This document shows positions 31,764-62,459 of a DNA stretch of 64,000 nucleotides, in pieces. The notes under the pieces are model-generated. The model was not told the DNA's origin, did not search any database, and worked only from the letters and a program-made list of their open reading frames with translations. The stretch is from Oculina patagonica (taxonomy: Eukaryota): the NCBI RefSeq assembly GCF_052425735.1, contig NC_135759.1, forward strand, positions 43,152,001 to 43,216,000, in the 5' to 3' direction. A program made the translations under genes and the position numbers. Within the stretch, counting starts at the first letter, position 1. Every line of letters begins with the position of its first letter.

Positions 31764-34700
31764 TTACGATGCACACTTGTATTTGACGTGGATATATTTG
31801 GATGAGATAACTGCACACGGGTTTCCATACACATCATTAGATGCATGAAGCTCACAGGTGTCTTTCCCATCACAAGCTTTTTTTATCTGTAATTAAACAA
31901 AATAAATTAGTTGTTTAATTCATAAGAAATCTTCTTCCTTGTACGATGGCTTAATTTTTTATTACCATCAGCTTCGTAAAGTCAACTCTCCAAAAGGCGG
32001 ACACGCCCGGGGCGTCGTTAAGTGTTCGTTATAGCGAGAGTCCGGAATAGCGGGAGCCATTTCCAGTCAAATCTCTTTCGCCGGGGATCTCAGTTTTGTC
32101 CGTAATAGCGAGCTGAAGTGTCCGCAGTAGCGGGGTGTCCGCAAGGCGAGAGATGACTGTATAGCTTTCTCCGATCAGGAAAATATGTGCAGAATCCGAT
32201 ATGATACCGTAGGTTATGAAAGGTTTAACCGAGCGGGATTTGGGTTAGCAAACGATAAAAAGGCATGCATCTTGCCTGTTCTGGTATCTCGTACAACGAG
32301 CGAAAGGCGGTTGAAGTGAACAGATAAAATTGAAAGCGAACATGGCTGGAGCAGTTCTAATGTTTTCGTGTAGTATTCCGGTGCGCTCAGCCAATAGGCA
32401 CTTTTAAGAACCCTGTGGTGTGATAAAAATGGTCTTCAATAACGTTACCGTACCTTAGCTTCCGACCCTTTGGCTTCACAGTTAGTGTTCATCCCGACTC
32501 CACATTTAAACATCTGTTTTCTTCCATAGTAAGCACGTGTAATCTTGATCTTCCTTCCACCGTAACACGTGATTGTACCCCTGCTGTTCTGACAGATGAA
32601 CTTTTCGTACGTGTACGAATCTAGTGACAGATCGAAAATGTCTTTTAAGAAAGTTTTTAGTACTATTTAATCAGACAATAGTCTACACATTGTGGTTTCA
32701 TAACAGAGAGAGGAACCTCAAAGGAAATCAGCTGTGTAAGAGGTCACCGGGACTCTAAATCACTGATGCAAATCTTCTGTTTTACTTCTTTTAAAATTGT
32801 CTTAAGCTGCGACTGACTAACTTCTGACTTTTACTGACTACTAACTTCAACCTCGAAGGTTCATCAATTATATAGCTGTATTGAAGACATGTTTGGGTAC
32901 GATTCTCGGTGACCTCGGAAATATTGAGACAATTCTGAAACTTAGACACTTCTTGTGTGAGCAAAATCTTGAATAACCTTAGACTATAAACTCGTAACCA
33001 AGAAACCTTAAAAAAAACGACACAAGCTTCGAAGCACTAACCCAAACATGACGAAGCTAAGCTAAGGGCTCTTATAAGATAAACTACTTGAAACCTTGGT
33101 GTGGGCTATCGGGCCCTGAAATCACAAGACTCGTACGGAAGCAACAAAATGACAAAAAAAGGCAATGAACCAAAAAAATTAATTTTTAAATGATAATTGT
33201 ACGCTTCACAACTTGTTATCAATCCTTGTAAACACTGTTACTAACCATTAACTCTAGCTCACTTGCATATCCCATTTTCCGCTATTTTCTTTTCAGGCAC
33301 AAGCGCACATGCTTAGTACCAAACAATTTTTCATTGCAGTTAACTAAAGCTAGTTTGTTTTCACACTAACCAGACGGGCAGTTGTAATGTAAATTCACTT
33401 GTTGAATGTCGATGTCACTTAGTGTCTCCCAATGCCCAATCGTCACCTGTATAAAAGTTCAACAACTTAAGTTAGCTGTAAAAAAAATCACATCTTCATC
33501 CTTGCACTCGTAAAAAGAACTCAGCTTAAAACGAAGAGAAAATATCCATATCCCAAATTTCATTTTGTAAAATGATTGAAAAACGAACAGTACACATAAA
33601 TATAATGGTCAATAGGTTTCATTTGATTGGTCGCGAACAGGGGTTTTATCCACAGCGTTAAAATTACAGATTTAAAACAACTGTTTAGCGAAAGGGCTGA
33701 CTTAAAAATCTGGTTTTTTTCTATTCAACGAAGAAACAGGTAAATAAATTATGTGAATTCCTGGCTTACTCCTGGGTCGTTTGGAACCAATGTTTTCTCG
33801 TCGTTTTTGGAAGCGAACCCATCTCCGTAGTGCATAATACTGGAGTAGTCATATGGAGTCACAAACGAACTAGGATCACTGTCGTTTTGTTTTGTGAAGT
33901 CCCAGCCACGCCCTAAAAAGAAATCAATATAAACCATAAATACCACATCACACCATTCTGAGGGTCTGAATGGGGTACCTTGATAACACTAAACACTTAA
34001 TATTTTGGCTCTGTATTAAACATGAAACAGTTAAATTTTAGGCATTTTAACACTAACAGTAAAATATTCACTGTAACAGTAAATTCTATCCAACAAGAAA
34101 CAAAAAACGGCTCAAAAATACCAATTTAATTTTGTTTAGTATATCAAGAAGTTTTCGGCCATTTTCCGACGATTCCCGATCATATATTTCGGAAGATTTC
34201 TGAATACAGTCGAAGTTTCCAGGAAACTGACGAAGATTTCCGAATAATATCGAAGATGACCAAAGACTACCGAAGGTTTCCGAGGAGACGCATATCAAAG
34301 GCTCAAAGTTCATGAGTGATTTTATTACCGAGTTTTGAAGAGCAGATAAGATTTTACAATGCTTAAAGACTATGGATTTTTCACGAAAAACCCTCCAAAT
34401 ACTTAACAGTATTTTCTCCGGAAACAGTAAACATTAAAAAATTGGCCGGTTTAACACTAAACCCCATTCAGACCCTCCATTCTGTTCCCAAGTTTAAACA
34501 ATAAAACTTTTTGCTTGGTTTACACACTGCTGTTTAAATTTGGGATCAGATTTAAATCTTATATGGCGACCAACTACAGAGATCAAAGACGAAATAGTTT
34601 TATAGTCGTTTATATTTACAACAAAAAATTGAAGGTAAATGCAAATGAGGCATTTTCTAATCGAGATGCCTAAGAATGCCAAAGTGTGTCTCACCAGGTG

Positions 34701-37700
34701 CATAAATTAAACTTAAACTTGAACTTAAGCTTTATTATTTGTTTTTGATATATTGTACAGTAACCCGAGTTGAAGAGATATCTTCTTCACACGTTTAACT
34801 CTTCTCAACGGCACTCAAGAGACATTTAGCATTCGACAAAAATATTCCAAACTGATGAAAATTAGATTGCGAGTTGTTGAAAAAATAATCGCTAAATTCC
34901 TAGTTGTCGAAAACTAGAAAGTTTTAATTTTCTCTTTTAGAAAAGAGGAACTCGCTTGGTTATCGACAGCTAAAAGTTTAGCATTTTGTTGTCGACAGCT
35001 CGCCTCACACACTACGTTTTTTTTGTTGTCGCTCACATTTAGCTGTCGATAACTAATATTTCCCACGCCGACCACTAAATGTCTAGTCTGCGGAGGTCAA
35101 AATTGATTTTTGAGAACAACCGAACCCAGGCTTAATATGTTTTTTTTTTCAGTATTTTAGCTTTCTTTCACCTTGAAAATTACTTTAAACATCAGTACTA
35201 AAGACAAATGTTCCATATAACCTTCTTTGATGTTTTCCCACTTGACTGTCACGTAGTCATCACGGTCTGGACGCGTGTGCTCGTGTAAATAACCAATCAC
35301 GTGACCTAGTTTGAAAGAAACAGTGTATTATAGAAACAATCAGTATTTTCTGCTCCGCGCGCCGTGTAGCCTCCCACGCAGTCGTTCTTAGATCGCCCCT
35401 AAGAACGACTGGGTGGAAGGCTACGCGCCGTGCAGATGAATAAGCAATTTTCGAGTTACCCTTTGCCTTTGTTTCAAAACGAGTCTACCTGCGAAACCAT
35501 TCAAATGTAATAAGTTTAATATGCATGAACATGGACCTGTAGGTGAAACGTATTTTTACATGAAGGGTTTCGCACGTAGACTCGTTTTGAAACAGAGGCA
35601 AAGGGTAACTCGGAAATGGCCTATTAAATCTATCAATATGACTGTTTGCTCAAGTGTTCTAGATTTTTTTCTGTCTGGACCACTCTCACAGATCAACCTT
35701 TCAAGTGGCTTACCATAAAAGCTGTTAATCCCCCGCTTTTTTAGCCCCCTCTCAATAAACCCCATTTATTATGAACCAAAAACAAACGAGGGTGGTTAAG
35801 ATTTGGGAAGATTAAGCCGGATCCTGGAAAACGGATTGGAAAAATTCAAAAGGTCCCCACTAACTTGCACACTGAGCAAGCTTGCGTAAGAACACTGAAT
35901 AACGCAAAAGCTTTATAAACCCCCCTCTCCCCGGAAGGTATTTTTTCTCAAGATCTTTTAAAAGCCGCAAATAAATGATGATGATGATGATGGTGATCAA
36001 AAGGGTGGGTGAAACGAATCATATGTCAGTTAGTGTGCACGAAGATGAAATAAGTGCTCTTAAGTACCACATGAATAGCTTGAAAAGCGTAAAGTTTTCT
36101 TGTTTTCCTGTTCATAAAGTGCCATGATCTGCCATCCAGAGAAGGTACGGGGTGGTTATTACAATATTACGTATTTGGTTTTTCTATCTAAAAAATCTTA
36201 AGTATTATTTTTTTAATTTAACGGTTATTCTGCACATGGAAAAATGTATAAGTCTTAGTAGTATTAAAAGTAAAAAAGAGTTAAAATTGATTTGTACATA
36301 AACGGTAACGTTGCTTACTGAAGTTGATACAGGCTTTCAGTTTTCTGTCACTGATCAGTAAGTTTTTAGAGACCTTTTCAACTACTAGTTGTTATGAATA
36401 GGGTGCAACATGAGCAGGTAAGAAACACCAATGGACTAACCGAGCTCGTGAAGGATCATGCCATGCCACCAACATCGAGGAGCGAGCAGGAGTCGGTACA
36501 CACTGCCTGTGTAACCTATGTCGGTCGCGGCACAACTGAAAACAGTAACAACCATGCCAGACCTTAGCAATGACATCACTGTTGTACACTTATTTTAATG
36601 TAAGTTCTGATAATTTAGTGGCACATTACGATAAAATATCCTAGTTTGTGATTTCTTTATTCAAATGACCTGCCTTTGTTTCACTGTATCGATACTGTAA
36701 GGGGAATCTTTATGATTACCGTTTTTGCATTCTTTGGGAGTGAATAAGGTACATTGAAAGAGTCTCACGCCCTGTCCCTAAAAGGGAAGCTTCGAGCCAG
36801 GTGGCCTATACTGCCGAAGCTTATCCCGGTTTCGATAGCAGTGGCTAGGAATATTTCTACTCCTCCTGGATGGGATGCTAGTCCATCGCAGGGTACCCAC
36901 CATTATTATTTTGCCGGTACCCAATTTTTATTTTTTATTATACATATCATTTTTGCAAACAATTTATTTTGTCTTTCCAGGCCCTGCAAACAATTTTTTT
37001 CAATATTTTTCATCCCCTCCCCCCTCCAAAAAAATAATGGTCCGTCCCTAAGCGCCTGAGTACAAAGCAGATCATGCCCACATAAATTATCATAAATTAC
37101 TTACACTTCTCTGTCGTTGTTAACAATCAGAAGATAGGCTTTTTCGTTGGATCGTGGTACAAATTTCACACAAGATTTATCCATCCATTCTTTCATAGCT
37201 CCAGCGATAGCATCTCCTGCTTTAACACTCTTTTCTTTAACATTCAATAGATAAACACAATTTTAATATTAAAAATTAGCAGAAAATCCTGAACCGCTAA
37301 TGTTTAGCGATTGGTCGACTGATGGTAAACATTAGGATATTTAACTATAAAAGACTTGATCATTTAAGTATGCGCAGTTCCTTTCAAACCAACCTTCACG
37401 GAGCTTGAAACAAAAAATTACTCATGCGCAAGTAAACATTACGGCATAAAAACTGGAAGCGGGCGAAAGAGGGATTCTTATTCCTGAAAGGAAAGACGAA
37501 TACGAGCAACGGCTTTGAGGAAAGGAAGAAAATACAGCTCTTACTCAACATAGAAACGTTCAGCATTTCCATCGCTATTCTGTGGTAAATTCTGTCCGAA
37601 TGGAGTGAGACTACATCGTGTGTCAATTTTTCTGTCTTAAATGTTATTAAAATACACTCTTTTTATTTTATAAGAATATCGAGGTTGAATTTTGCGAATT

Positions 37701-39982
37701 ATTAAGAATATTTTAAGAATAAACCCGAGGCTGAGATTTTAAAAAGAATATAATTTTGAGTTGAAAATTTGTAAATACAATGCAACTAAATATGTGTTTA
37801 ATTTACTGAACCGTACAAAACTTTTAACTAGCCAATAAATCGATAATAACCTGCACTAGCCAAATCTTCGATGCTTATGACAGTTCGACGAACGGTACAA
37901 AAATTGATACCGCAAAACATGCTTAAACGGAAATGTCAAACGTATTATCTAAGAATGTTCATAAGCAAATTTTCAGCCTAAAACCGGCAGAAAAGTAAGA
38001 ATATTTATCCTGGGTCGAAAAAACAGTATTCTTATAAAATAAAAAGCGTGTATCTGTAGACGGTAAGCGTGGAACACGAAAGCATAGCTTATATTTTTTG
38101 TTCCAAAGCTATCAGTCCTACCTAGAGAGCTGTGCACCACAAAAGGGATCTTGCCATCAGGCCACTGTCGGCCTGGTGTAAAGCCTCGTTTCTGTCCATG
38201 GGCCCCAGTCTTTAACTCCTTGTATTCGTGTGGCGTTAGAAGCAAGTCTCCTTCATACAGTCGCCTTTTATCTGGAATATTCATTTACCAAACATGTTAA
38301 CGTCGTAACAAGTTTTCGCGTGGGGATAATATTTAGAGCTCTTGTAATAATTGAAATAACAACAAATCAAAAGCCCTTTGGGCTTAGTGTCTCGTGCTAA
38401 TTTGTTATTCTTGCAAGTCTTTGGTCAACTCTATTTTTTATCAAGTCATTTGACCATATAGGTATTTGAACATTAAGTCATGCATTTGAACATAAAGATA
38501 CATTTTGTTGCTTAACAAAAGTTGCGTTATATTGTAGCGTGACATTCACAACATGATATAGGATACTCGTGCCACTCGTGACCTGCAATTGATTGATATG
38601 GAGTGACAATACTCCAAGTCACTAAATGCCGCAAAACCCAGAGCAAGGTGCTGGATAAACAGACTTCGAGCTGACTATCACCTCCCAGGGTCGCCTTGGA
38701 GGAAGGGACAGTAAACTTGAAACGAGACCAAGTTAAATCTCAATCCATTGAATTTCTTACCTTATTTCTATAATTTACTTTTTCTTCGAAGATTTTAGCA
38801 GTATTGTTATCTTTCTCAAATAAAGGTTTGCTTGATTAATTGATTTGACATCAAGGAAAAAAACAGTGTTTGACAAACCTCCATTGAAGAGCTTCAGATG
38901 GATTCTTTTTTTCTAATTAAAATATCACACAGGCACTAACGAACATCCCTGAAAAGTTATGACGTAATGATCATAAGCCATGTTGCTTAGCAACTTCGAT
39001 GACGAAAACCACAGACTCATTTTCAATTCTTGTACGGGATTTGGGGCGGGACGCACCTTTCGGAGGGCTTTACTGAAAGGATTGGTCGAAAGGAACAATG
39101 ACCCTAGCCCAACCTCGTTCCCAGGGCTCTTCCCTTGGTGATTTGGAACGGGCCGTTTCAAATCACCAAGGGAAAAGCCCTGGGAACGAGGTTGACCCTA
39201 GCCCTTAAAATAGAAGAGGTGCGTGAAATATGGAGCGAATGAAGTTACAGATTCCGCAGAGGTGCCTGACTTCTGTGCGATTTAGGATTCACCCTCAAAT
39301 TGTACGGGTAGTTTCCTATCGGATTTTTTTTTATTTGACTCGGGTCAGTCACTAGTAGTTCCAGGCGAAGGACTTCACCATGAAACCCATTGAAGTACAA
39401 ACAAAGTACAAACAGATCAACCGGATACGAACGAGAGACAGAAATAAAGCCTATTGTTAAATATCCAACTTAAATACTTCAGAAAGCTTCCTTTCGAGTT
39501 ACTTCGAGGTTCATCTTGTCTATACAAGCAAAAATAAAAATATTTTTTGTCATATCAGTTTATAATTTTACAATTTTGTGTAGGGCCAAAATATGACCCC
39601 CTATTTGTCTTATTCATTAATATAGAACAATAAGGGAAACATCAATTTAAAAAAATACATTAAGTTCCGTGGAAAATCTTCTTCCGAAACTATTTTGTAG
39701 TATCCTTTCTGAAAATTTTGGCGAAGCTTTGAGGATGAGACATATTTCTTTGCCGTTTTGTAGAATTCATTTTTTCACAATTTAGGGTCTATGTAGAGCA
39801 GGGAGTGTCTTTGAATTAGCAATCTTCTTTGTATCGAACTTTTATCTTTCATTTATAGAGAAATTATCAGATCCTCTGTTATTTCTCCGAGCTATCTATT
39901 CATGAACATTGCACATACCTTTGGCGTTGCCCAGTAAAACCACAAAGGTGGCTAAAAATGCGAGCGCCCAAAGCAGTTTCAT
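31764..39982 (-). CDS. Secreted astacin (M12A) zinc metalloprotease with C-terminal SUEL/Gal_Lectin domain, about 343 aa
   Basis: Minus-strand exons: 39982-39919 (signal peptide [21 protein letters not shown]), 38271-38122 (pro-region YEGDLLL, then QKR|[10 protein letters not shown]), about 37234-37105, 36535-36441, 35305-35222, 33912-33770, 33446-33371, 32620-32454, 31886-31764. Zinc motif [19 protein letters not shown] and Met-turn YDYSSIMHY are intact. The SUEL domain reads [34 protein letters not shown]. Extra small pro-domain exons cannot be excluded. Confidence 0.9.
31978..32161. mobile_element. Tc1/pogo-like MITE
   Basis: Imperfect TIR AGTCAACTCTC..AAGGCGGACAC / GTGTCCGCAAGGCGAGAGATGACTG|TA. 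Confidence 0.65.
33960..34477. mobile_element. MITE, 17-bp TIR, 6-bp direct flanks
   Basis: GAGGGTCTGAATGGGGT / ACCCCATTCAGACCCTC, with CATTCT at 33954-33959 and 34478-34483. Confidence 0.85.
35367..35423. mobile_element. 57-bp hairpin mini-MITE with 9-bp TSD
   Basis: TAGCC...GGCTA palindrome flanked by CGCGCCGTG at 35358-35366 and 35424-35432. Confidence 0.85.
35441..35624. mobile_element. Palindromic MITE
   Basis: CGAGTTACCCTTTGCCTTTGTTTCAAAACGAGTCTAC pairs with GTAGACTCGTTTTGAAACAGAGGCAAAGGGTAACTCG. Confidence 0.8.
37655..38050. mobile_element. TA-flanked MITE
   Basis: TA|CACTCTTTTTATTTTATAAGAATA ... TATTCTTATAAAATAAAAAGCGTG|TA. Confidence 0.8.
39110..39194. mobile_element. 85-bp hairpin mini-MITE with 9-bp TSD
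   Basis: CAACCTCGTTCCCAGGGC...GCCCTGGGAACGAGGTTG flanked by ACCCTAGCC at 39101-39109 and 39195-39203. Confidence 0.9.
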
Positions 39983-41587
39983 TGCAAAAAATTTTTAGAG
40001 CTCTCGTAGTTTGATCCTTTCCAACAATAAATGGACAACAAAGTGATTTTCCGACTGTAATTACAAGAGTCTTTATCCCTCGCTTTATGAGCGTATAAAT
40101 GACAAGTTACGGGTGAATGTATAGAAATGGTACTTGGAACCTAGTTAGCCATGAGACGGCGTTTCACTCTAAATTACAATGTTCAAATTAAAATAACTTG
40201 AAGCTATGAAGTTTTTATAAAGTTCGCCAATAAATTAGTTTACTTCTGGTAAATATCGCCTAAGTAAATTTTGTTAAACACTATATATACTAATAAACAC
40301 CCCATTTTAAATCATTGTTCTGTCAAATAAGACTCGCATACATTAAAATAGCGAAGGATTTTAATGTTTGTGGTTTTGATTTGAGCGTAAATATAAATTG
40401 TCAAAGTATTTTCAAGCCGTAATTTTTGCGGAAATAATAAAAACGCTGCGCTACAGTAAGCTTGAGTTTTTTCTTTCATCTTTTCATTTAAATCTAATTG
40501 TTGTTGTTAAGCCTGCCCTTTGAAATCATGTATAATTCATTGTGGTTTTTCAACCAGTTGAAATAATTTCTTCTGGTCGACCACTCATTCAACCTTATAT
40601 TTTCTTCTTAATTATTTCTAAACGCCTACAAGATAGGACTAACTGCCCTTCTTTTTTATTCGGAGTTTGCAGGGACTTATGCTTAAGCACACCATATCTC
40701 TAATAACATAGTGAATATTAAAGGTAAGCCCTTTAGATTTTTGCCTAATGGTGGCACACTTAGGCCGCTTATAATTACACACTATCCGCTATTCGCATGT
40801 AAACCTGGAAGAGAACAGAGAAAAGAAACGAAAGTTACATTGTACGATGTTTTCATCGTCTAACTAACAAAACTATCGTTTCTAAAATCCAGTGCCCCCA
40901 ATGAAACACACCTGGGGACCCTGCTATCTCAAACTCTTAAAGGAAAAGAAAATTTGTACGAGATAGTGGGGTTTCAAAATAAGTGGCTTGGCATATTTTT
41001 ACAGTATAACAATGGCTAATTCTTGTGTGAAATCGAAAGAACGGGAAGGAGTGAACGTTTTTTTTTTGTGAAACGAACTTGCAAAGATTTGTTATGTTGA
41101 AATACGACTACCATGATGCATCGCAGGAAAGTTACATTGAGAGAAGTGTGCATTGGTGTTCTGTGCGCTGAGTCAATACGTTATTGTGGTGTTGATAGAA
41201 GATAGTAGGGTGGCCCAGAAGGGTCAAACACAAATAAAAAAGAAACACAAATTAAAAAAAGAAATCACAAATTGAAAAAAAAATCAAAACGCAAATAAAA
41301 AGCAAAACGCAATTCAAAAAGCGAAACGCAAACAAAAAGCAAAACGCAAATAAAAAGCGAAAGGTTGTCTTAAATCCAACAGGACGTGTTGACCGACCCG
41401 TCTTACACGGTCCAGACCGCATCGGCTTCTGCCAGTACTTACATGGAACCGTTTGGAACCGATCAGGACCGCGGTTCCAGAAGGGTTCCGTGCAAACAGA
41501 GAAGGCCTTTTTGCGGACCGGATCCGTTTGGAACCGGTCGTGTGTAAACACAGCCTACTGATCGTCGAGCCCTGTTGGCACAAACTA

Positions 41588-42874
41588 CAATCTCGAGCCC
41601 AGAGTGAGCCCCGGCTCCGTGATCCGTCAGCGGTTGGTCAGCGGTAGGGTCGCCGGGACTCACTCTGGGAAACTGAATAATAATTCAGTGTCTTACTGGT
41701 CCTCACAGAACAATAGAAATCAACACGGAAGTCTGAAAATCTTCCCCGGAAGTAAACCAAACCGGAAACCCTGCAAAACATTTTTTGTTTTCCATTGTCA
41801 AATGTTCAGGTGTATCACCTTAATTTTGTAAAACACCTAAGAACTCGTCATATGGCGCTACATGTATGAAGTATTTTCTAATTCTACCATTCTTTTTGAA
41901 CTCAAAAGATACCTTGAATAAAAAAGGACTTCCTTTAAGCGTCGATTCTGAGCGGAGTTTTAAAACAACAACCAAGGCGTCACCAAGGACAAGGTCGATT
42001 GAAAACTCAGTTTATAGTTGACTTACAAATCTCGCTAGAACTACTGTTTTCTTTCAAATCTCCGTTACGATTGAAAAACTGAATATCGCAGACAGTGCTC
42101 GATTCAAAATAATAACTAATAAAGCAGAATTTGAACATTACGCGTTGTTGTTTTGCTGAAAAAAGGAATTGTACAATTTTGTGCACGTGAATTGCGTGAA
42201 TGTGTGCACGAGCTGAGTCGCCGAAATGCTAATTACACCTTTTGAATAGCGTTGACCGATGTGGCCTTTAACGTCTTTATAAATATTACCGCTATTTGAC
42301 GAGGAAAAAATTATTTGCTCGAAAACATGCAATCTATCATGAAAAGATGCGCTGTCAGCGAGAAGCCTTTGAAATATACGAAAGTCGCCAAACAAAAATT
42401 TTTATCAACAGAACAATAGCTTGTCCGTGCGTTGTGCATTATGTAAATTTCTTCACTGTCGTCCGCAAAACAACAACGAACACATGCACAGTCAGGCGGA
42501 ATCTTGGAAGGCAAACAAGATCTTTGATTTAAAACCATTATAACAGTATGCACAAGAAAGAGACTAACGGAAATCAAAACACCAGACGCTCTTTTGTTGA
42601 CTCTCTCTTTTGTTAACTGCAGAACGTTTTTGTTACTTTTGTTGCTTCGATAAACACCAGTTCTGTCAATACTGTGTTAGAAATAGTTCAACTTTCTCGA
42701 TTTACTTCCGTTCTGGGAAATTTACTTCCGCTTAGACCTGAGAGCATGCGCAATAAAAACCGGAAGACCAAGGTTCTACCTGAAATCGACCTGAAATTGA
42801 TCTGATCGATTCCAGTTTCCCAGAGTCCGTCCCGTACCGCTGACCGACATAGACGGACTCTGGGCTCGAGATTG
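41588..42874. mobile_element. 1.29-kb non-autonomous DNA transposon with 9-bp TSD
   Basis: TIR CAATCTCGAGCCCAGAGT / ACTCTGGGCTCGAGATTG, with CACAAACTA at 41579-41587 and 42875-42883. Confidence 0.9.
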
Positions 42875-43016
42875 CACAAACTACTGATGAAATCATAGCG
42901 TTTACAAACTTTCACAGAAGGAATTATATTATTTTCGTATTCATTAATGCATCGGAATTCAAGGAAACTCGTCATCCAATTTCATTTCCTTTGACTGACA
43001 ATAAAGGGAGTAAGTG

Positions 43017-43222
43017 AGCAGGGATGGCGCACTAATGTGGCCTGGGTTCGATTCCCGGTCCCGGCGTCATATGTGGGTTGAGTTTGTTGTTGGTTCTCGT
43101 GTTTGCTTCTAGAGCTTTTCCCCGCGTTTTCCGGTTTTCATTCCTCCACAAAAACCAAGAAGTCTAAATTCCAATTTGATTGGGAACAGTGGATAAAGAG
43201 ACACTTTGTGTGGAAATGCTAC
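43017..43222 (+). mobile_element. tRNA-derived SINE (second family)
   Basis: Truncated A-box, B-box GGTTCGATTCCC, body ATGTGGGTTGAGTTTGTTGTTGGTTCTC, and a TTTA tail. A degenerate copy lies at about 19010-19130. Confidence 0.65.
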
Positions 43223-43358
43223 TGCAAATTCCCATTTATTTAGTTACATGTATAAATATCTGCACAAAAAGTAGACACAAAAATCCAAATTTTCACGAGC
43301 ATTTTTTTCGCTTTTAATTAAGGAATCATTTAGGGTCGTTATTACATCATTAGATCAG

Positions 43359-44625
43359 TTATAACTTTTTCCTGTATCTACTGACATTCCCAGTATAGCT
43401 CAAGGTACTTTGCTGACATTCCCAGTATAGCTCAAGGTACTTTGGGGTCAGGCGACACGGGTTTCCAAACACATCGTTTGAGGCGTGAAGCGAGCAGCTA
43501 TTTTTCCCGTCACACATGAGACGCACCTGAAAAGCAAAAAAAAAAAAAAAAAGAAATGGTAAAATGGAAGTGAAAAACAGAATAAGGAATCTAGTCTGGC
43601 GTTTTATATTTTGTAATCCATTTCCATCCTCGCCATCGTTGGTGTCCTTTCGGCTTCATAGCTCAGTTGCATGGAGCGCGCATCGTACCGGTATCGCGGA
43701 GGTCAGTGGTTAAAATCCTGTGGAAGCCCTGAATATTTTTTAGCTTCGTTAGTTTTCAATTACTTCATTTGGAAAACCCACTGCAAAGATCGTGTCTTTC
43801 TTACATCTATATCTACAGTTCACATAAGAAGCAGTTTATGCACTTTACATGATATCACTCGGTGTTGTGCAATTCCTTTCGGTAGGGCGAACTTTTTTTC
43901 TATACTCAATTTACCCTGTGGACTGCTTAAAGCGAGCGATTTACTTGCTTACCGTCGTGTGAGAGGCAATAGAGATACACTTAACGTTGAGACCAATTCC
44001 GCACTTTAAGAGATGTCTTCTGCCGTAATTAGCGAACAATAGATTGATCGTTTGAGTTCCTGGGCATTTCACTTCTCCTGTTTTGTTTTGGCAGATTGCC
44101 GTGTAGTATTTCTTGCTGCTATATCCTAAAAACACGAAAGTGGATCAATAAGGTTAGTAATATTAACTATAGAATCGATAAAGAAACTGACAGAGAAGAC
44201 TTACAGTTTAGTTCACATCGGTAACGCAGTGGTTATGGGCTCAAATCCTGTTGTAGCTAACGCATCTTTGAAAAATATACTCTTAAAATGTGATGGTGTA
44301 CATGCACTTCAAGCACCATTACACTTTCAGTAATACTCTTTGTTTGTTTCTTTTTGCAGTATTTCAAAGGCACTCCTAATATACTTTTCATTTTTTTTAT
44401 CAATTCATATTAAGCTGAATTGACTGTTCGGCGACCTCAGCATAAAGGTATAAACAACGAGAAATAAAGTTATTTTTTTGCCCATTTTGATATAATGCTG
44501 ATGTGATTGTCTGATCTTGATAAACTGAAATATACGAAAGTAGATCAAAAGAAAATGCGGCATTTACCTCGTGTCAAACAGCTAACAAGAAATACCAGAA
44601 TCAAACAATTCTTATAGTTGATCAT
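43359..44625 (-). CDS. Secreted single-domain SUEL/rhamnose-binding-type lectin (copy A), about 132 aa
   Basis: Exons 44625-44568 (MINYKNCLILVFLVSCLTR), 44125-43953 (ICQN..CPG..FANYGR..KCGIGLNVKC) and 43526-43359 (CDGKNSC..ASNDVFGNPCRLTPKYLELYWEC plus an extension). Canonical GT-AG splice sites in consistent phase. Confidence 0.85.
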
Positions 44626-44907
44626 ACTGACGCCTAAAGCACATGCATAGACCTTCCCGTCAGAATACCTCAACAAACCACTTCATTTAGTCTTTACTGT
44701 GATACATTATTTGCTCGTATAAAATTAAAATTCTTATATTCTTTTGTCCTACCTAAAAATGTTAACAGCTGCCATTTGGAAACAAAAACTCTTCCCAGCT
44801 ACTAAAGTATAGGAACCGATCGTTTACTCACCTTTTCGGTAGGTTTCTTTGATCAGTCTTTCAGTCGACTTAGCTTTATTTAGCTTTTAGACAGGCTAAA
44901 CAAAACA

Positions 44908-45760
44908 TACCACATCGAAGTACTGCTCAATAGTTTTCATTCAATTGGCCATGTTCTAGGGCTTTATCCACAGATTAAAAGTTGAACCACCTTGCAGAGC
45001 ATAATAAACAGTACCTCTGAAAGCACTGCTCAATAGCTTTCGTTTGATTGGTCACACACTTGGATTTTATCCAAAGACTTAAAAGTAAGAACCACCTTGC
45101 ACAGCATAATAAACAGTACCACATGAATGTACTGCTCAGTAGCTTTTATTTGAGTTGTCACACACTAGGGTTTTATCCACAGACAAAAAAGGTTACAACC
45201 AACTTGAGAGTACTGCCAGAAACCCATAAGGGTTGAAACGTGTAACGCGCGCGCACAGCGTTTGAATATTCATTTTGCTAAGTACCATATTTGGAAACAC
45301 GAGGAATTTGTACGCGAATGCTTTATACACGTAGTGACACACGCAACATAATTTTTGGTTTTACGGTAAGTTGCTTGAATTTCGACCTAAACGCCGTAAA
45401 TTTCTTACAGAAACTAAAGAAATTCGCAGCGAAGTTCTCCTGACTACTTCATGAAGATGAAAAAGGAGAATTTAACCAAAATTAACTTTATTTAAACAAG
45501 CTTGTTCAAAAACAAGATTACGCCATCGAGCGCGAGCTAGTGCGCGCTGTGAATTTAATCCAAATATAGTACTTAGTGATTTTCGTGATTTTCCAAATAT
45601 GGTACTTAGTGTAAACGAATGTGCAAACGCTTTGTACAATGCGAATCATAGGGAGTTACACGTTTCAACCCTTATGGGTTTCTGGTACTGCTCAATAAAT
45701 TGAATTTGAATGATAATTATGTAATACAGTAAGGATTTATCCTAGACTGAAAGGTTACAG
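44908..45760. repeat. Tandem satellite of about 104 bp (about 4 units) interrupted by a MITE
   Basis: Units start at 44908, 45012 and 45117 (TACC..AAGTACTGCTCAATAG..TTTATCCA..ACCACCTTGCA.AGCATAATAAACAG) and resume after 45691. A degenerate monomer is at about 33590-33680. Confidence 0.8.
45217..45684. mobile_element. MITE with perfect 30-bp TIR and 7-bp TSD (P-element-like termini)
   Basis: CAGAAACCCATAAGGGTTGAAACGTGTAAC at both ends, inverted; GTACTGC at 45210-45216 and 45685-45691. Confidence 0.92.
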
Positions 45761-47508
45761 GAACAACTTGTGACATTGTAATAGCTGCTATTAAAGTTCT
45801 CAGCGGTCTGACATACAAACGAAGCGAGAGGGTCATTCCGCATTGTTGACCCTTTTGATATGTTACCCTTTCGCAGTTTCGCCTCGTTCGCATATCTTCT
45901 TAACAAAAGAATACATATATTGCGGCTCAGCTGTAATAACAGCTATTAACTTGAGGTGGAATAGCTATTCTTTGATTAGAGAAGAAAAATACGGCCATGA
46001 TTCACGGAAACTTTAAAAAACCAAAAACTTGATTACAAGGGAATAGCCCTTATGTTTATACATAGTTGCCTCCCTACTCCCCGTTCAGAATTGAATAGTG
46101 CCCAAAAATGCGGCTGGAAAAAAAGCTTGAGAAGGTAGATGGCTTCCCGATTCTAACAAAGTTAGCCGCCAAACTATAAACTGGTTGAAAAAGAAAACGA
46201 TTCTATTTTTAGTCGAGCTATTGAAACCATATCCTTTACTTAGCTGATATCAAACTGACGACCTGACGCAATTTGTATGACGTTGAAAGGGATTCTTCAA
46301 AGGGCTACCTTAAAATTCGAAGATAAGCAATTCATGCTGGGCTTATATTTGCTCAACGTTGCCTTTCAAGCCTATTTCTGGGCAGGGCGTATACGTGTCA
46401 AAAATCTTTTGGTTCCATTTGGATTGGATGGATGCTGTGTCAAAAAATGTATTTGTGCATATACGAATACCATTTTTTTTTTTTGAAAAAAAAAACTTGC
46501 TGAGCATAACGATATGAAACCCAGAACAAGCCCTACAACTGCTCATTTTACAAACATAACACGTCGCTGAGCATTCTCTAACTAAACTTCAAAACAAGCT
46601 ATACAATAGGGTCTATTTTTCTAACACATGAGCTTATATTCGGGAGGGCTTATTTTTTATTTCTGAAATTTTGGGGTATAATTTTCAGAATTTTCGGAGA
46701 ATAAATGGATTCCAGCAGCAGGTTTGCAGCAACAAAATGAGGGGGGTTAAACTGCTGCAGACAAGCATCTCAGTGTTTCTTGATGCTATGGAAACCAAAG
46801 ATAAACGTTGGTTTCGTTGACTAGCTAGGCTTTGAAAAAGTTTTAATGTAAAAAAAATAAAGAATAGCCATTCAACGACAATAAGACAAGCATTTTTCAA
46901 TATTTGTTTATTGTCTTAAAACGTCTGCAAAGCCGTGATTCACGTTTAACAAACTGAGGCAATTGTATCGCTTCTAATGTCTCGCTCCTGCGTAAAAAAG
47001 AAAAAAAAGCAGTTACTTCAGTTAGGTCTACTTATTAGTATTTTAACTGCCAACCAACCAAAAAAAAGGTCAGCTTCGAGCCAAAGTGGCGCATACTGCC
47101 GGAGCTTATCCCGGTTTCCTTAGCATTAAGCAGCTAGGAGTATTTCTACCCCCCCTGGATGGGATGCTAGTCCATCGCAGGGTAACCAACCAAACAGACA
47201 AACAAATTAATCAGTTAAGAAAATAAAGAATTTAAAAATATAAATAAATTAATAATAAATAAAAAACTTGCAAAATAGATGTTGGTGATTCCTGCGTTAA
47301 TAACATAAAGTCACTTTTAAATATACCTTTCCCGTTCAAAATTGTCTTGAGCGCGGAGGCAGATTATTTAGAAAAGTAATTCTCATTAAAGAAAGAAGCT
47401 AAGTGCAGGTAAATAAACAACGAACGTTCATTTACTTGCTCAATATGAAAAGAGAAACGTAGCTCATTAAATGCAAGATACCTTATCATGTTTAATATAA
47501 TATTTACC

Positions 47509-48807
47509 TTAATGACACTGCCAGTATAAAGCGAGATATTTCTTGGTCCAAGAGCACGGGTCACCAAACACGTCATCTGAGGCGTTGACAATGCAGTTGT
47601 TTTTCCCGTTACACAGATCGCTCACCTGAAGAGCACATTTTTCTGAATGTCAGTGTGTTGTTTCTCTCTCATAGAATATAGTGAATCATCGTGGTATGAG
47701 ATATTGAAAGTTTGCACTTTGGCCCCGAGCTTTGGTGGCATGTATCAACTAGGCGTATTACTTCTCCCCCACCCCTAGACCCCCACCCCCCACTCACTTG
47801 CCAGCATTTTGTTCTCGGGTGACCTTGACAGTTCAACGTTCACCGGTGCCGATTTACACTCCTGAACTGAAGGCACTGTAAGAGTAAGATGCCTTGTCTA
47901 CAGAACAAGTTGTGTGGCAAGAGTTCAACGAAATATGGGGGATGAAAGTTCGCTTGAATCAATAGTTTACTCACTCACTCACTCTACTACTTGATAAGAA
48001 TGTGACATAACAAAACGAATATGCATAGAAAATTGAACCAAACATGGTCTATGATAAGCTGTGAACTGCGACGAATATAAATAAAAAAAAATACTCACAA
48101 TTTTCAGGGATGTTTCAGATCTACACTTGGTGTTGAATCCCATTCCACATTTGAACACGCGGCTTCTTCCATAATTAGCGAACTTCACTGTTATTGTCTT
48201 GGTCCCAGGGCAGCGCAGTATTCCTTTTTTGCCTTCACAGATTGTACCGAAGTACTCGTTCTGATAACCTGCCAAGTTACAAGGACATTCAGTATACGCT
48301 TTGCACGAGGCTAAAGCCTTTTGTATTAAACACTGAGAAATTTAAGTGTTTTTTAAGGTAGAGTAGAAACGATGCTTTCATTTTTTTCGAACGCTTAGAC
48401 TTCGTGTTGGAGCAGGCAGCGAAAACCGATTAAATTTATCCTTAAATTTTCAGTTTTTATGAGCTTTTTCATTTTCTCACGAGCTTAGAATTAACGTACA
48501 ACCGTCAAGGTTTTTTTTACAAGCACCTAGTGATCACTGAAAAAAAGATAAAAAGAGAGATCACTGAAAGAATCAATGACAAAAGCAACGAACACATGTA
48601 ACTAGTTTAATAGCTAGCAAATTATATACGCAATGCAAGTGTATGTTTGTTAGAAGGTACAAACCTGAATTAAGCTTAAAATGCCTACGTTTGACGTGGA
48701 AAAAATGTTCAAGCAAAAAGCAAGTAACAACAAAAAGAATTACCAGGGTACTGAGCCAGCGAGCAGGCAACGAAGGCCAAAAGTAAAACAGCGCAAAACC
48801 TTGCCAT
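47509..48807 (-). CDS. Secreted single-domain SUEL/rhamnose-binding-type lectin (copy B), about 116 aa
   Basis: Exons 48807-48744 (MARFCAVLLLAFVACSLAQYP), 48268-48099 (ICEG..CPG..FANYGR..KCGMGFNTKC) and 47625-47509 (CNGKNNC..ASDDVFGDPCSWTKKYLALYWQCH*). Eight Cys in SUEL spacing. Confidence 0.9.
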
Positions 48808-54000: not shown

Positions 54001-57000
54001 AATTCCAAGAGAGATTTGTGCAGACTCAGGGGCATCTCTTAAAGTTTACCGACCTGCATTGCGTGTTGTTCCATTTTTGCTGACTGCAGAATTCTATTGA
54101 CGTCGCCAACAGATAAACCAATCTGGAGAGGAATTGATTATAATTAACTACATAGAAGGCTTGATTAATTCCCACACAGCTGTTCTATCGCAAAACTAAC
54201 GATTTGCACAAAATAAAGTTGCCTGGCCAGTGGATTTACGTAAATTCTTTGGGTGCCAAATGAAGCGATGAACTATATATATTCGAGGTTAACAATCTTA
54301 TTCCTCAAAATGCCAATCTCTACCCAGCAGTAAAACTATGTACATGCACATTTTTAGGGCAGCCTGCACAAATGCTGGGGAGTAAACAGCAATAGACCTG
54401 CATTCCATCCAGGGGGAGTAACAATGCACCGCGCGCATTGTTTGGCCAACCAAAACCACCGCTATGCTAAGCGAATGAATGTTTTGCTAAAGAAACGCAC
54501 CTCATCCGTTTTACACTTACCAAGAGATTCTTTATGATGATCGGCATGCACACACAGAAGATGATGTAGACTACGTAACTTATCCAGGGGTAGGGTAGGG
54601 GCTGATATTTGAACACCGTGTGCGGGTATTTCATCTCACCAAGTATTAACATGAAGGTTGTAAAAAGCGAGTATGGAAGGTAGTCAAACAGGTATTTTGT
54701 TGCTTCATTCGATTCATTCTGCAAATGAACATTGGAATGTGGTCAAAGATGAAGATGATGCGCTCTTATTGGTCAGTATAGTTGCAACTAAAACTGTATT
54801 ATATTATTGTGTTATATTATATAAAAGTATTATTAAAAACAAGCAAAGGTATATTGCAATTCCTGAATTTTGATTGGTTTACAGGCCATGTTATATGAGC
54901 TCATATACCATGGTAAGGTAGGTTTACTCGTTATTGAGAACAGCCGGGGAGCTAAAATATTACAATTCTTTAAGCGTTTTTAATGAAACAATTACTCCAC
55001 TCGCGCTTGTTAGATATGAGGTAGTTATAGCCAACTCATAGTCTATCCAACACGCGTGGAATAATTGTTGATTGATAAATGGAAGCCACCCAACTAGTTT
55101 AGCTTTAAAGTTATTTTGGGTGACCAGTTACTACGTTTATGTGCATTTCTAATTAATATAATACATCTTTAGTTTTTGTAAACCTTCGTTATACCTTCGC
55201 CAGGGTTAAAACCTAGTTCTCAAATGCCATGACAAAGAAAGCATTTATTTTGGGCCGCAAATTTACCCAACATTCGGAAAATACGGACCTAAAAAAACAC
55301 CCTATATCTTGGCACTTAAATCTCCTAATTCGAACTAATGCAAAATGTCTCAGTTTAAGCGGAAAAATGGAAAATAAAATCTTATCTTTACAGTACTTAC
55401 CCGAAATCGCTCGCGAAGTAGAAGAAAAAAGGGAATTCCAAAGGCAATTACAAAAGGAATAAACAGGATAATGATCTAAAGAGGCAAAAAGAAAAGAACT
55501 CATATTTACAGATAGCAATGTCGTTATTGTTGTGAGGTGCAGATGCCTTATGATATGTGCGTCGGATTTAGGATTCTAGTCCTCGCCTGATTCTTCGTGT
55601 TGTGTTCTTGGGTAAGATTCCCAACTGTCACATTGTTCCTTTCTACCCGAGAGTACAAATTGAGTGGGATCAGAAGTACACAAAAATGCTACGTCTCATT
55701 AAGGGGGAGTAGGAATTCCCATTACGCTCAATGCTACGGAAGCCACCAAGGGTTGAATGCAGGTTTCACATTAACCTAAACCTAATGTACAAGTAGTTTA
55801 CTTAGCCTGCGTGGCCGGCGGTTAAACGGGAGGGAGAAGGGGAGTTCGAGCACGAAGCGCGATCGGGAACCCGGGGGCGATTGGGGGTTAAGAGAACCCC
55901 TCCAACCGCCCTCTCTACGTGATCGCGCTTCGCGCTCGAGCTTCGTGCTCAAACTCCCTTTCTCCCTCCGCTTTGAACGTCGCCACGCAGGCTAGAAGTT
56001 ATTAAAAACAAACATACCTTAACTAATGTCTTGATTATATTTGTCATCATTATAATATAAATACCAAACGTAGAAAATCTGAAGGCAAAATAATAAATAA
56101 AAGAGGTAAACAAGTTGTGTAACAAAGGAATCAAAAAAATATTAATGCCAGATACAACAAAGCCTTGATGCAGGTAATTAATAAACTGCATCGCTGTCTT
56201 TAATTCTAGAGACCGCTTTCACTATCTGTAAAGACCCAAGAATTTCTGCTGTAATAAATAAATTATTACGCTGATTATTAAAGCTACCATGCGCTTTTTA
56301 ATTATTTGAGACACACTTCTTACAATGTCATCAGTCAGAAAAATCTTAAATCTAAACTCTCATTTTTCATGTTCTTACCAGAAAATTCCAGGTAGGGTCA
56401 ATAAAAAAAGCAACATTGATTGTATGCGTGGTGAAACTGTACGTCCTTTCTTTATTTTGAGTACTACTAAAAAAAACCTCTCGCAACAACTTTTTTGAAG
56501 CATAATATTTTTACGATGATCAGTTAACGTCGAGCTTTTTCTTTTACATATGTTGACCTTGAAAAGTTAAGTAGAATGATTGTTTTGTTTGTTTTTATTT
56601 TAGAAAAGGTGTTTACCTTCTTAGATAAAGCACAAAAATAACCCAAGCGATAAAAATTGCAGTGGCAGCCACTGCTTTGAGACTATAAGCAGATCCATCT
56701 TTGTTGCGATATAACGCGTTGTACTGGAACATGTACACAAGACTCGTCATGTACAGGAACCACTCCATCCAGTTATCTATCTTCAGCAGATATTTAAATT
56801 TCTGGAAGAAAAAGAACACGATACCAACTGTTATCTACAAGCTTTCTTTAGAGTGCTTTGTGTATTAATATTATAGCGATACTGCAATGTAAGGTCGTCG
56901 CTATATGAATTCGAAGTAAAGAGGTTTTCATTTGAGCGTTGAAAAAAAAAACACAGCGTGAATACAAGGTACTGGCGGCGAATCACAAGAATCGCAAGCA

Positions 57001-60000
57001 ACACAATGAATTAAAAAGAACGCGAATAAAGTACATGTCATTGGATCTAATCGCGGAAAAACGCGTATGATAAAGTCGTAATGGGTTCTGGTTTAGCATT
57101 TGTTTGGTTGAGAATGTGGCGCGATTTTTTTTTAAAACCAATCAACGACCATTGTATTAAACGAAAATCAAAGCAATTCTGGCTTTTCACACAGGACTAA
57201 AAATCGCACTATTACACATGTAACACGATTAAGCTATTTATGGCAACAAATTTCAGGCTTGGGGGAGAGAATAATAGACATATGTGGACCTTTCAGTTCA
57301 CTAGCAAGTTGCAAGAGACAAGACGATGAACTACACTCTCCCATTCTCGTCCAATTCCCTTGACAACTAACGTTATAGTTTTCTTGTTTTCCGACTCTTT
57401 TCTCGTGACGTCATTCGTTGTCTTACCTCGTCCCATATTTGGAATATTTCTTTAAGAAGATGAAACAGGCTCATAACCACAATCGTAAAGCGTGGGATAT
57501 CCAGAAAAACATTTTTTTGCTCTTTGCTTCCGTCCTCCAGTAACACAGTCATTGTGGTCAGCATCACCAAGAACAAAATGTAAAATCCTAGATTCATGAC
57601 GTAAGCCTTCCAGCCCACGCTCCGCCTGCAATATAACACAAAGTGGTCAGTTTTCTTAGATTGCTGGCGTAATATCTGTTATGTATAGCCCACTTGCAAA
57701 AAGAGTGGTGGCCTGGGGCAAGGGTAGACGCGCGCTGAGTTGTGGGATCGTTTGAGGGGGAGCACGAAATTGCAAACAAAAGAAATTATGCCAGATCACG
57801 AAAGGTTTGAAAGATGCCAAAAGGTGTGGGTTGTTGTGTGCTAAGTTCCTGGACACGCGCCTTTTGACCGGTTGGTTGAAATTTTGCTCAGATATTTTCA
57901 GACAACTTTTGTGTTAAACTTTCTCCGAGTTTTCCAATTTGATGGTAATAGAAAGTTATCAGTGCAACTGGATTTTCCAAATTTTAAAAATATAGAACTT
58001 CAAGTGACATATTTTAGAGTTTGAAGACAGAGGACAATGTGTGATGAAACCGTATCGATCTTAAACACTTTGCTTCAATTTTTGAGAGTCAAAAAAGGTA
58101 AGCATCGCTTATTTTCCAATATTACCGGTCAGACACTGTACATTTCAATTCTCTAAGCTTGGCGCGAAATCGTGCAGTCACGCGAGATGGCCAGAAGAGA
58201 CCTTATGTTGTAACCTAACACCTTCCTTCCCTAACAGAGAATTATATATATATTTTTATTACGCAAATGTGTTGATTAGCTTTTGATTGGAACCGGAATT
58301 GAATCCATAACTAATGCTTAACTTTATCTTTTTCAAGTCTCTAACCTAAGGCCCATTTGCTTTCGAGCGCTTTATCGTCTTACCATTTTATGTTCATGAT
58401 AGCTCCTGTAACAGGATGTGACAGACAGTTATCTCGTTTATACTTTACCATAGTCTGGAAAATAAAACATGAAACAAGTACGCGTGCTGTGATTGGCTTA
58501 AACCATACTTCTTACACTAGAAACTAAACTTATATGCGAGGAGATGCGTAAAATGATATAAATCCAGTCTCTTACATTGACATAAATCCTGTCTTTTATA
58601 TTGACATAAATCCTGTCTTTATTGATATAATCCGCCTTGTCTCTTCAAGATTGCGCCATGAATTTTAGAATGGCGTAGACTAAGAAGACATGCTAGACCT
58701 GAGTCCCAGGGAGTGGTATGGGTACTCGAGGTGGGGAGTTATAAATGACTTTATTTTTGATACCAAAAAGTAATCCATTTAATAAGTTTAAACCCTTCCA
58801 GAATACAAAACTCTTATAATCTCTAAAACAAGGACACTGTTACCAGTGTGGGCTGACAACAAACTTTAATCCCGTCAAAATACCTCTTGGAATACGATTA
58901 CTCAAAAAAAATACCGGAACAAATAATAACCCCAAAGTACCAAAATCATCTATTTCATACCCCATATTTGCACCTTCACTCAATTCCGCTTTGACAACGC
59001 TATTCCGGCGCGTAACGTCGTGTTTTGCTTTACGATAGGTAAAAATTAAATACTTATCCCTTGTTATCACGGAAAAAGAATCGAACTTACATGCAAACTG
59101 TCGAGATATTTCTTCGGATCATGTTTCCTGAGATCCGGCATGCCTTGCAACAACATGAAGTCGTAAGTGACCTGGTGACGAGAAATATATATACAATGAA
59201 CACAGACGTGCCAAAGGAGTTTACTTGATGTTCGTCACATTCTCCAAACTTATGATGATGCAGTTAGGAGAATTTGTGTGCTGACCTTAGGAAAGGCTTT
59301 TCAAAGCAGGATTTTATAGCCAATTTCCGTGTTGCAAGTCCGTTATAAATAACGATGTCCGGAACTACATTTTAACTATTTTCACAGTGTAACTTGAAAG
59401 GTCTAATGAAGAATGTCTTTAAGCTAAAGGAATTTTAAATAAAATGAATTTTGCCACAAAGGAGACTTACCGAATAGTCTTCACTTTTCTCTTTATCGCC
59501 AGATTCTTCAACACATTTATCAAGAAATTTCTGCAATGATTAAACATTCAGATTAAGACACCACTGTAGTATTTTCACTGACTTTCAACTAACTGACATG
59601 GTTTCATAGATTAACTCAGCGGTTAATGTTTACTTATAAGTTAGCACAAACAGCAACTTGCGTTGTTTACACGCTAATTCTCTCACGAATGCCATTGGTT
59701 ACATGTTTTAGTTATTTGTTTTGTCGCTTAAAGGCGTCATATGCAACGGAGCACGAAGACAAGAGTCGACAGCGGCTGCCTCAAGTGTATGGCTCGAGTC
59801 TCTTAATAATAATAACTTATTTAAGTGTCAGGGTAGGTATTTAGCTTACAGAAGCTAATTGGAGACACTACTACGTTACAGTATAAAGACTATTTTTTTA
59901 ATACCTGATGTATGATGAAAATGACAGGAATCAAGAATCTGTTTTCTCCATTCCGTACCTAATAACTGTAATTAAAGTTAGGTCTGGGAAGAAACCTTTT

Positions 60001-61992: not shown

Positions 61993-62459
61993 CTGTGGGA
62001 TAGCAATTAACAATTATAAAACACGATTCCGGCTCTTTTTTGTGGGACTCTTTGTGAGCATTAGAAAGAGAATTCAGGCCTCATGTAATGTCCCACGTAT
62101 GGAATATTTCAAGCTTTATTTTTGAACTAAAAAAATTAGTTGAGATTGTTACGTTGGGATTTTGTCGCTTGGTGGTTTTATAGTGGAACAAAGTTATCTC
62201 CTGGGTATCGGATGTAAAGCACATCCGATAAGCTCTTGATTTGATTCCCCAAACAAAACTTTGTTTCACTGTAAAACCATCTTTACATCACTTCTAGGCA
62301 AAGCGTTTTTATTTGTCCAAACTTTACATTTGGTCATTACAAATGAGAAACAATTCTGTAGTGCTGGCCAGTACAGCGGTGAAATCGACAAAATATTACT
62401 TTTGTCAAGGACCCAAACAATTATTGAACACTAGAATTAATGAGTATTGAAACTACTGT

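Follow-up and report, generated by a model that had tools for sequence, protein, structure and literature searches.

How does a secreted protease come to carry a lectin domain, and what might that domain do for it? The question is raised by a 64,000-nucleotide stretch of the Oculina patagonica genome (NCBI RefSeq assembly GCF_052425735.1, contig NC_135759.1, positions 43,152,001 to 43,216,000 of the forward strand; the whole stretch is hereafter the window), in which three genes on the minus strand—A, B and C, at 48807-31764—all carry the same two-exon, short-loop SUEL module. In gene C the module forms the tail of an astacin metalloprotease. An earlier note on this DNA took A and B for the donors of a locally assembled fusion; the evidence set out below instead points to an old pairing, with an altered sugar site, whose tail recurs on a second astacin (gene D) and on a trypsin (gene E).

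Gene C (39982-31764, minus strand) has nine exons and eight introns, all GT-AG and of phases 1,1,2,1,1,0,1,0, and encodes 343 amino acids with no internal stops. Genes A and B each consist of a hydrophobic leader exon followed by the two-exon SUEL domain, with products of 116 and 132 amino acids, respectively; signal peptides in all three genes were predicted by a hydrophobicity heuristic. These models, together with Pfam searches of single exons, in which PF02140 was matched by all six SUEL half-exons and PF01400 by three of the five astacin exons tested, bear out the description of three co-oriented genes sharing one module, including its loop motif KCG(V/I/M)G(M/L/F)N(T/V)(N/K)C; alignment likewise shows that in A, B and C the SUEL domain is preceded by a phase-1 intron and interrupted by a phase-0 intron at one common column, as had been claimed. 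Such a mid-domain intron is a minority state, since 107 of the 118 PF02140 matches in the genome (529 Mb) span most of the profile in one frame. Six of the remaining 11, half-domain, matches come from genes A–E (our count), and given this rarity the recurrence of the split module in A, B and C is above chance. The exons are as follows.

39919..39982, minus strand: gene C exon 1, predicted signal peptide with phase-1 donor (heuristic; N-terminus aligns with orthologues)
38122..38271, minus strand: gene C exon 2, prodomain containing YEGD, an aspartate-switch-type motif, plus a dibasic KR site and the start of the mature domain (ends matched by contig 1 of run X1)
37105..37234, minus strand: gene C exon 3, astacin catalytic domain (PF01400, E 2e-4)
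36441..36535, minus strand: gene C exon 4, HELG as the first half of the zinc motif, and two cysteines (gene model, alignment)
35222..35305, minus strand: gene C exon 5, zinc histidines 2 and 3, family glutamate and RPDRD, symmetric phase 1-1 (PF01400, E 1e-8; contig spacing implies inclusion)
33770..33912, minus strand: gene C exon 6, Met-turn SIMHY (Pfam and contig match)
33371..33446, minus strand: gene C exon 7, end of the catalytic domain, Trp at the GQR Arg position, phase-1 donor to the SUEL exon (gene model, alignment)
32454..32620, minus strand: gene C exon 8, first half of SUEL with Gln at the CSL3 Glu7 position, YGR and short loop (Pfam, contig match)
31764..31886, minus strand: gene C exon 9, second half of SUEL with Asn at the Asp79 position and a one-residue insertion replacing the Gly83 loop, stop (Pfam, alignment)
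44568..44625, minus strand: gene B putative exon 1, signal peptide (ATG, GT donor, fitting phase 1; heuristic)
43953..44125, minus strand: gene B exon 2, first half of SUEL, Gln7 type (Pfam, alignment)
43359..43526, minus strand: gene B exon 3, second half of SUEL, Asn79 type, and 17-amino-acid tail (Pfam, repeat search)
48744..48807, minus strand: gene A exon 1, predicted signal peptide (alignment, heuristic)
48099..48268, minus strand: gene A exon 2, first half of SUEL, Glu7 kept (Pfam, alignment)
47509..47625, minus strand: gene A exon 3, second half of SUEL, Asp79 kept, Asn74>Asp, Gly83>Trp (Pfam, alignment)

Whether the protease and lectin exons of gene C are spliced together is answered best by contig 1 of sequencing run X1 (843 nucleotides), in which exons 2, 6 and 8 lie at record positions 15, 474 and 693, respectively. 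The offsets of 459 and 678 nucleotides equal the summed predicted exon lengths exactly, so that exons 2-8 are joined at the predicted spacing and the 33371/32620 astacin–SUEL junction, which the earlier note had proposed checking in transcripts, is bridged; X1 was taken as RNA by guess, and none of the runs listed is on record as RNA. The ends of exon 8 are matched exactly by contigs of X2 and X3, from a different study and under a different organism label, and one X2 contig of 1119 nucleotides would have room for the whole gene C coding sequence. A contig of X4, a run whose kind is not on record, reads through the same astacin–SUEL intron. The junction also occurs in independent database proteins. 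For the exons of A and B, no X1–X3 contig pieces appeared among the rows listed and depth was about 0, which, with the runs unrecorded as RNA, is no evidence either way.

By every sequence test, gene C is an astacin (M12A), with proteolytic activity predicted. Motif definitions were taken from a 2023 review of the family (PMC9848320). The zinc motif HEXXHXXGXXH is present as an 11-residue match spanning exons 4-5, the family glutamate and XXRXDRD follow as EHTRPDRD, the Met-turn SIMHY supplies the tyrosine ligand, and the four cysteines of astacin's two conserved disulfides align, as does the zinc-blocking aspartate motif YEGD of the prodomain behind the signal peptide; the claim that the third module follows an intact astacin domain therefore holds for all family motifs. 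One position departs from the common pattern. The Arg of GQR, present in BMP1, TLL1 and HCE-1, was found in 26 of 39 astacins by our count, and Trp in four, all of them C orthologues. This Arg shapes the S1' pocket and favours acidic P1' residues; Trp in its place suggests that gene C has no preference for them.

Both folds are recovered in a structure model of the coral orthologue P0005, with a mean predicted local distance difference test (pLDDT) score of 86.8 and a predicted template modelling (pTM) score of 0.84. Its catalytic part matches proastacin (3lq0, root-mean-square deviation (rmsd) 1.8) and BMP1-type domains, and its lectin part matches SUL-I (5h4s, rmsd 1.0 over 94 columns) and CSL3, with SUEL-fold matches in the range 1.0-2.0. 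For a two-domain protein, a pTM this high suggests a fixed domain arrangement; the astacin–SUEL linker in gene C is about three residues long.

What the tail might bind was approached through its sugar site. The SUEL of gene C matches PF02140 and has eight cysteines and an alpha/beta fold. In CSL3, rhamnose is contacted through Glu7, Tyr27, Asn74, Asp79, Gly83 and Lys86 (PMC3269628), and the sugar-binding residues of SUL-I include Glu7, Asn71 and Asp76 (PMC10377782). The canonical E-Y-N-D-G-K set was found in 38 of 66 SUEL domains sampled and in none of the nine members of the short-loop clade, which carry two other signatures: Q-Y-N-N-x-K in C, its three coral orthologues, E and B, and E-Y-D-D-x-K (Asn74>Asp) in A, D and Actinia, gene A reading exactly E-Y-D-D-W-K. 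The Rhopilema SUEL has the E-Y-D-D pattern too, with Gly kept. Gln7 and Asn79 occur jointly in seven of the 66 domains, six of which are C, its orthologues, E and B. Gly83 is absent from the SUELs of A–E, those of A, B and C fail the rhamnose-site test in CSL3 numbering, and gene C retains Tyr27, Asn74 and Lys86. Because Glu7 and Asp79 are now amides and the Gly83 loop is remodelled, the ligand of C is probably other than L-rhamnose or terminal galactose, and the galactose/rhamnose specificity assumed earlier for these lectins becomes doubtful, the residues that bind rhamnose in CSL3 and SUL-I being changed. An anionic or substituted sugar would fit; the net positive charge of the domain was considered as support for an anionic ligand and dropped, as charge is not conserved between C and P0005.

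Gene B has the signature of C although it groups with A in the tree described below, which may reflect either convergence or local conversion; 80% identity between B and C exon DNA over 60 nucleotides is a hint only toward the latter. A further SUEL of the genome (G000:C8, L005:4871-5621) is also split, by an intron that lies at a different place, and it carries Asn where CSL3 has Asp79.

The age of the pairing was judged from orthologues. An exon-8 query led to a Stylophora pistillata model, and a search with that model returned 27 matches among 518 candidates, two of which had both Pfam domains precomputed: P0005 (Joint Genome Institute, JGI) and P0006 (Porites lobata). A P. evermanni orthologue was found as a cluster member, and the coral orthologues are 73-77% identical to C over their full length. 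Because they are split between exons, SUEL domains of this kind score below the Pfam cut-off exon by exon, and some database models of the gene are truncated. P0005 was then scored against a set of 1.84 billion representatives; of the 21,475 matches, the top 150 were examined, 71 of them in one scan and all 150 with a local profile. Four of these 150 (Actinia tenebrosa, P0039, Rhopilema esculentum and Hydractinia symbiolongicarpus) carry both domains, and all four are cnidarian. The ESM Atlas gave generic astacin clusters only, with scores <=0.84. In the Hydractinia protein P0055, two SUELs follow an astacin-like domain whose zinc motif is broken, which makes it a probable pseudo-protease lectin.

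A tree of 39 catalytic domains unites C and its coral orthologues with Actinia (support 100/99); D weakly joins the two medusozoan proteins (80/77). Orthologous fusions are present in Porites, in Stylophora (a partial model) and in the anemone Actinia. Porites and Stylophora lie on opposite sides of the deepest split among corals, and anemones and corals separated several hundred million years ago. On these sequence comparisons, the astacin–SUEL pairing was in place by the time stony corals and sea anemones last shared an ancestor, if not earlier, and has been retained since. Tests of a single versus multiple fusion origin gave approximately unbiased P values (p-AU) of 0.23 and 0.12 on catalytic domains and 0.28 on SUELs.

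The tail is not confined to gene C. Searching the genome with a gene A exon revealed D and E, both on the contig of C. Gene D, a second intact astacin–SUEL fusion 560 kb from C (G000:C2:43.749-43.758 Mb; L003:291-8530, plus strand), has nine exons that translate exactly to P0185, which bears the NCBI label Oculina patagonica; it keeps Arg at the GQR column and has Phe in place of the SIMHY tyrosine. The nine-exon structure common to C and D was rejected as evidence of kinship, as other nearby astacins break at the same places. Gene E, a trypsin–SUEL fusion 260 kb from C at the end of a trypsin array (G000:C2:42.926-42.930 Mb; L001:4375-7850, minus strand), comprises a leader, a trypsin domain and a phase-1 intron followed by the same two SUEL exons, and its SUEL is the closest paralogue of that of C. 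Among 304 candidate stretches from a metagenome scan, one locus on a JGI contig (L027:1018-2352) likewise has a trypsin exon followed by a C-type SUEL exon, at 72-76% DNA identity. A search for intact trypsin–SUEL orthologues was uninformative: the 120 matches listed of 720 were mostly long multi-trypsin proteins, with PF02140 in none. The SUEL module has moved onto two protease classes, astacin and trypsin, which fits a portable targeting tail. As C-type astacin fusions are widespread and the Actinia orthologue is without the features derived in C and E, trypsin E would most simply have acquired its tail from a C-type gene.

Did that tail come to C from its neighbours? Local duplication and exon shuffling from A or B would account for the adjacency, shared strand and identical intron phases of the three genes. 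A tree of SUEL domains restricted to 21 of the 66 rows and 96 columns (the trees omit two truncated domains and those of L006, L013 and L021) does place A, B, C, D, E, two coral orthologues and Actinia in one clade (98/97), apart from the other SUELs sampled and with the medusozoan SUELs outside it. The predicted grouping of the three neighbours stands to that extent. Within the clade, however, C joins E and the orthologues (99/99) and A joins B (94/93), and an exclusive A+B+C clade is rejected (p-AU 0.013), as is a clade of astacin-fused SUELs without E (p-AU 0.003). Looser arrangements are not rejected: A and B with the C-clade but without D and Actinia (p-AU 0.11), which together with the Gln7/Asn79 of B speaks for a local origin, and A+B+D (p-AU 0.41). 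Divergence tells against it. SUEL identity to C is 67% for E, 49% for D, 43% for B and 39% for A; the synonymous rate (dS) is 1.5 between C and E and >2 or saturated for every other pair, C with A or B included; and the non-synonymous rate (dN, 0.24-0.59) is well below dS in all pairs. Low identity and near-saturated dS make A and B old paralogues of the same module and not immediate donors, and the fusion is conserved in Porites, Stylophora and Actinia. A recent local origin is accordingly highly improbable. Exon shuffling as such is plausible by way of the phase-1 introns and recurs on the trypsin; it is a recent local duplication from A or B that the data contradict. A and B may be either descendants of a free ancestor or products of fission: their position outside all fused members has support of 53/41, so that a deep free-lectin ancestor is neither shown nor rejected. 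In a quick tree of all 66 rows, E was nested next to C (86) and A+B next to D (87); neither grouping held in the 21-row tree, and we make no claim from it on the direction of module transfer.

Our preferred reading, to which we give a probability of about 0.5, builds on the gene structure, splicing, catalytic motifs, both folds, conservation and re-use of the module on D and E; binding, activity and cell type are what we infer beyond these. On this view, gene C encodes an astacin zymogen made up of a signal peptide, a short prodomain, an intact zinc domain and a single SUEL-fold domain; gland cells would secrete it into the mucus or the gut cavity, and cleavage at the KR site would activate it. 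The SUEL domain would act as an exosite of non-rhamnose specificity that holds the enzyme on a glycosylated target (a mucus, prey or microbial glycoconjugate), with cleavage near the docking point. A gland-cell origin is suggested by analogy with other cnidarian proteases: gland cells make the astacins of Hydra (PMC8191133), and in Nematostella both astacins and trypsins show expression in the pharynx and mesenteries (PMC6767649). Several observations weigh against this reading. The structure model is of P0005 (77% identical), not of gene C's own product. Exon 5 (window 35222-35305), which supplies two zinc histidines, has a weak-looking donor and is missing from the Stylophora and Porites lutea database models, which also lack all or half of SUEL; its loss there is either a model error or a catalytically dead splice form. 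Both trypsin–SUEL copies are disrupted in frame—E, in this assembly, by a break close to where the trypsin exon ends, the L027 copy by a stop, a frameshift and a lost cysteine—so that this fusion may have failed. SUEL net charge, +10 in C and +2 in P0005, is not conserved, which weakens the idea of an anionic ligand. The changed site may equally mean that sugar binding has been lost, and latrophilin lectin domains of the same fold have, by their structure titles, been solved in complex with proteins.

A less probable alternative is that sugar binding has been lost and that the tail serves as a structural cap or as an exosite for a protein, much as latrophilin's lectin domain binds teneurin. 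Three of the six canonical contact positions are changed and fixed across coral orthologues, lectin domains of latrophilin and LAT-1 in protein complexes are among the fold matches, and the linker is short and rigid; yet Tyr27, Asn74 and Lys86 remain, distantly related corals hold on to the same conservative amide substitutions, and A and B, the secreted free forms, have been maintained with dN below dS. That gene C might instead be a developmental or reproductive enzyme, processing morphogens or turning over mesoglea or egg coat in the manner of Hydra HAS-7 or hatching enzymes with its tail as a matrix anchor, seems unlikely. The orthologue is apparently single and highly conserved, a 17-residue segment resembles BMP1/tolloid, and HAS-7 processes Wnt (PMC8191133), but the CUB and EGF tail is absent, the open reading frame ending after SUEL; the C orthologues do not group with fish hatching enzymes in the catalytic-domain tree; and the tolloid likeness is a sequence resemblance outside any tree. 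More unlikely still is a nematocyst venom component with its lectin tail aimed at prey glycans. In its favour are the names given automatically to the Actinia protein ('astacin-like metalloprotease toxin 2') and to the Hydractinia protein ('nematocyst expressed protein 6-like'), the top lectin match, SUL-I, which is a venom lectin, and the occurrence of both 'astacin' and 'galactose binding lectin' in a paper on nematocyst proteins (PMC3627010); however, those names are similarity transfers, C is strongly conserved with no expansion seen, and the Actinia accession is not in one supplementary file of the Actinia fragacea venom/mucus proteome, a file that may use other identifiers.

Set against known systems, gene C resembles the astacins with ancillary tails (ShKT, MAM, CUB, C-type lectin or ricin-type lectin, as in LAST-MAM, meprins and Hydra HAS) in its signal peptide, Asp-switch prodomain, motifs and joining of the tail through a phase-1 intron, and differs in its SUEL-fold tail and in Trp at the usual S1' Arg column. 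In the available text of the 2023 review, the lectin tails are C-type and ricin-type, SUEL and galactose do not occur, and helminths are credited with >100 tail domains (PMC9848320). BMP1/tolloid-like proteases have a CUB and EGF tail that gene C is without, and the C-terminal ShKT of cnidarian NEP-6 and HAS is not in the gene C model. With CSL3 and SUL-I (PF02140) the tail shares eight cysteines, YGR, Lys86 and fold; unlike them, it is a single, protease-fused domain with a shorter loop, a mid-domain phase-0 intron, Glu7>Gln, Asp79>Asn and no Gly83. The latrophilin and LAT-1 lectin domains also use the SUEL fold as a module of a larger protein, but these are bilaterian membrane receptors, at 28-30% identity, with Glu42 and Gly117 kept.

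The same architecture occurs in XP_031567488.1 (Actinia), CAH3014041.1 and CAH3142076.1 (Porites), XP_078360405.1, EP00795 P001098 (Rhopilema) and XP_057307810.1 (Hydractinia), the last differing from gene C in its two SUELs and broken zinc motif. To the question, raised in the earlier note, of whether it is already widespread and characterised, the answer divides: astacin–SUEL proteins are present in other cnidarians and in public annotations under generic automatic names, and are apparently uncharacterised. We found no paper on the architecture, although prior mention is possible in cell-atlas supplements or in a paper on Nematostella nematocyst proteins (PMC3627010; 'astacin' 23 times, 'galactose binding lectin' twice). 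The word 'lectin' is absent from the main text of the Hydra (PMC8191133) and Nematostella (PMC6767649) papers, and a search for the accessions in papers gave no matches.

The surroundings offer further observations. Stretches near D and E hold astacin-ShK, astacin-MAM-trypsin and trypsin-MAM genes, and a dense secreted-protease region (L002, L028 and L032-L035; G000:C2:42.93-42.95 and 44.33-44.38 Mb) stands beside a canonical tandem SUEL lectin cluster (G000:C2:43.95-44.26 Mb). Within the window, a perfect 32-bp tandem duplication (43381-43444) at the 3' end of gene B creates its 17-amino-acid tail, intergenic tandem repeats of 106 bp and 18-19 bp lie at 44903-45191 and 41226-41362, and the introns contain many repeats with very high contig depth. 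An exon at ~17796-18071 (plus strand) matches the CSDE1 cold-shock domain, and ankyrin and ion-transport exons at ~54470-62006 (minus strand) fit a TRPA-like channel upstream of gene A.

As tailed astacins are common, the architecture alone is a modest addition. What sets this tail apart is its age, its conservation in corals and an anemone, its rebuilt sugar pocket and its re-use on an unrelated protease class. A wider and rather unlikely extension would be an undescribed hexacorallian glycan-addressing module, in which the short-loop SUEL has two rewired signatures (EYDD in A, D and Actinia; QYNN in C, E and B), each for a distinct non-rhamnose glycan. The fused proteases would cut the target so bound, and the free lectin of that signature would shield or agglutinate it. 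Were this true, the module, sitting on two astacins and one trypsin with one free secreted lectin per signature, would be a glycan-steered system of digestion or symbiont sorting, with microbial, algal or mucus surfaces among its possible ligands. The domains of A, B, C and D make a small, soluble and testable set for new SUEL specificity, and the locus opens the question of how corals aim extracellular proteases at prey, mucus or microbes.

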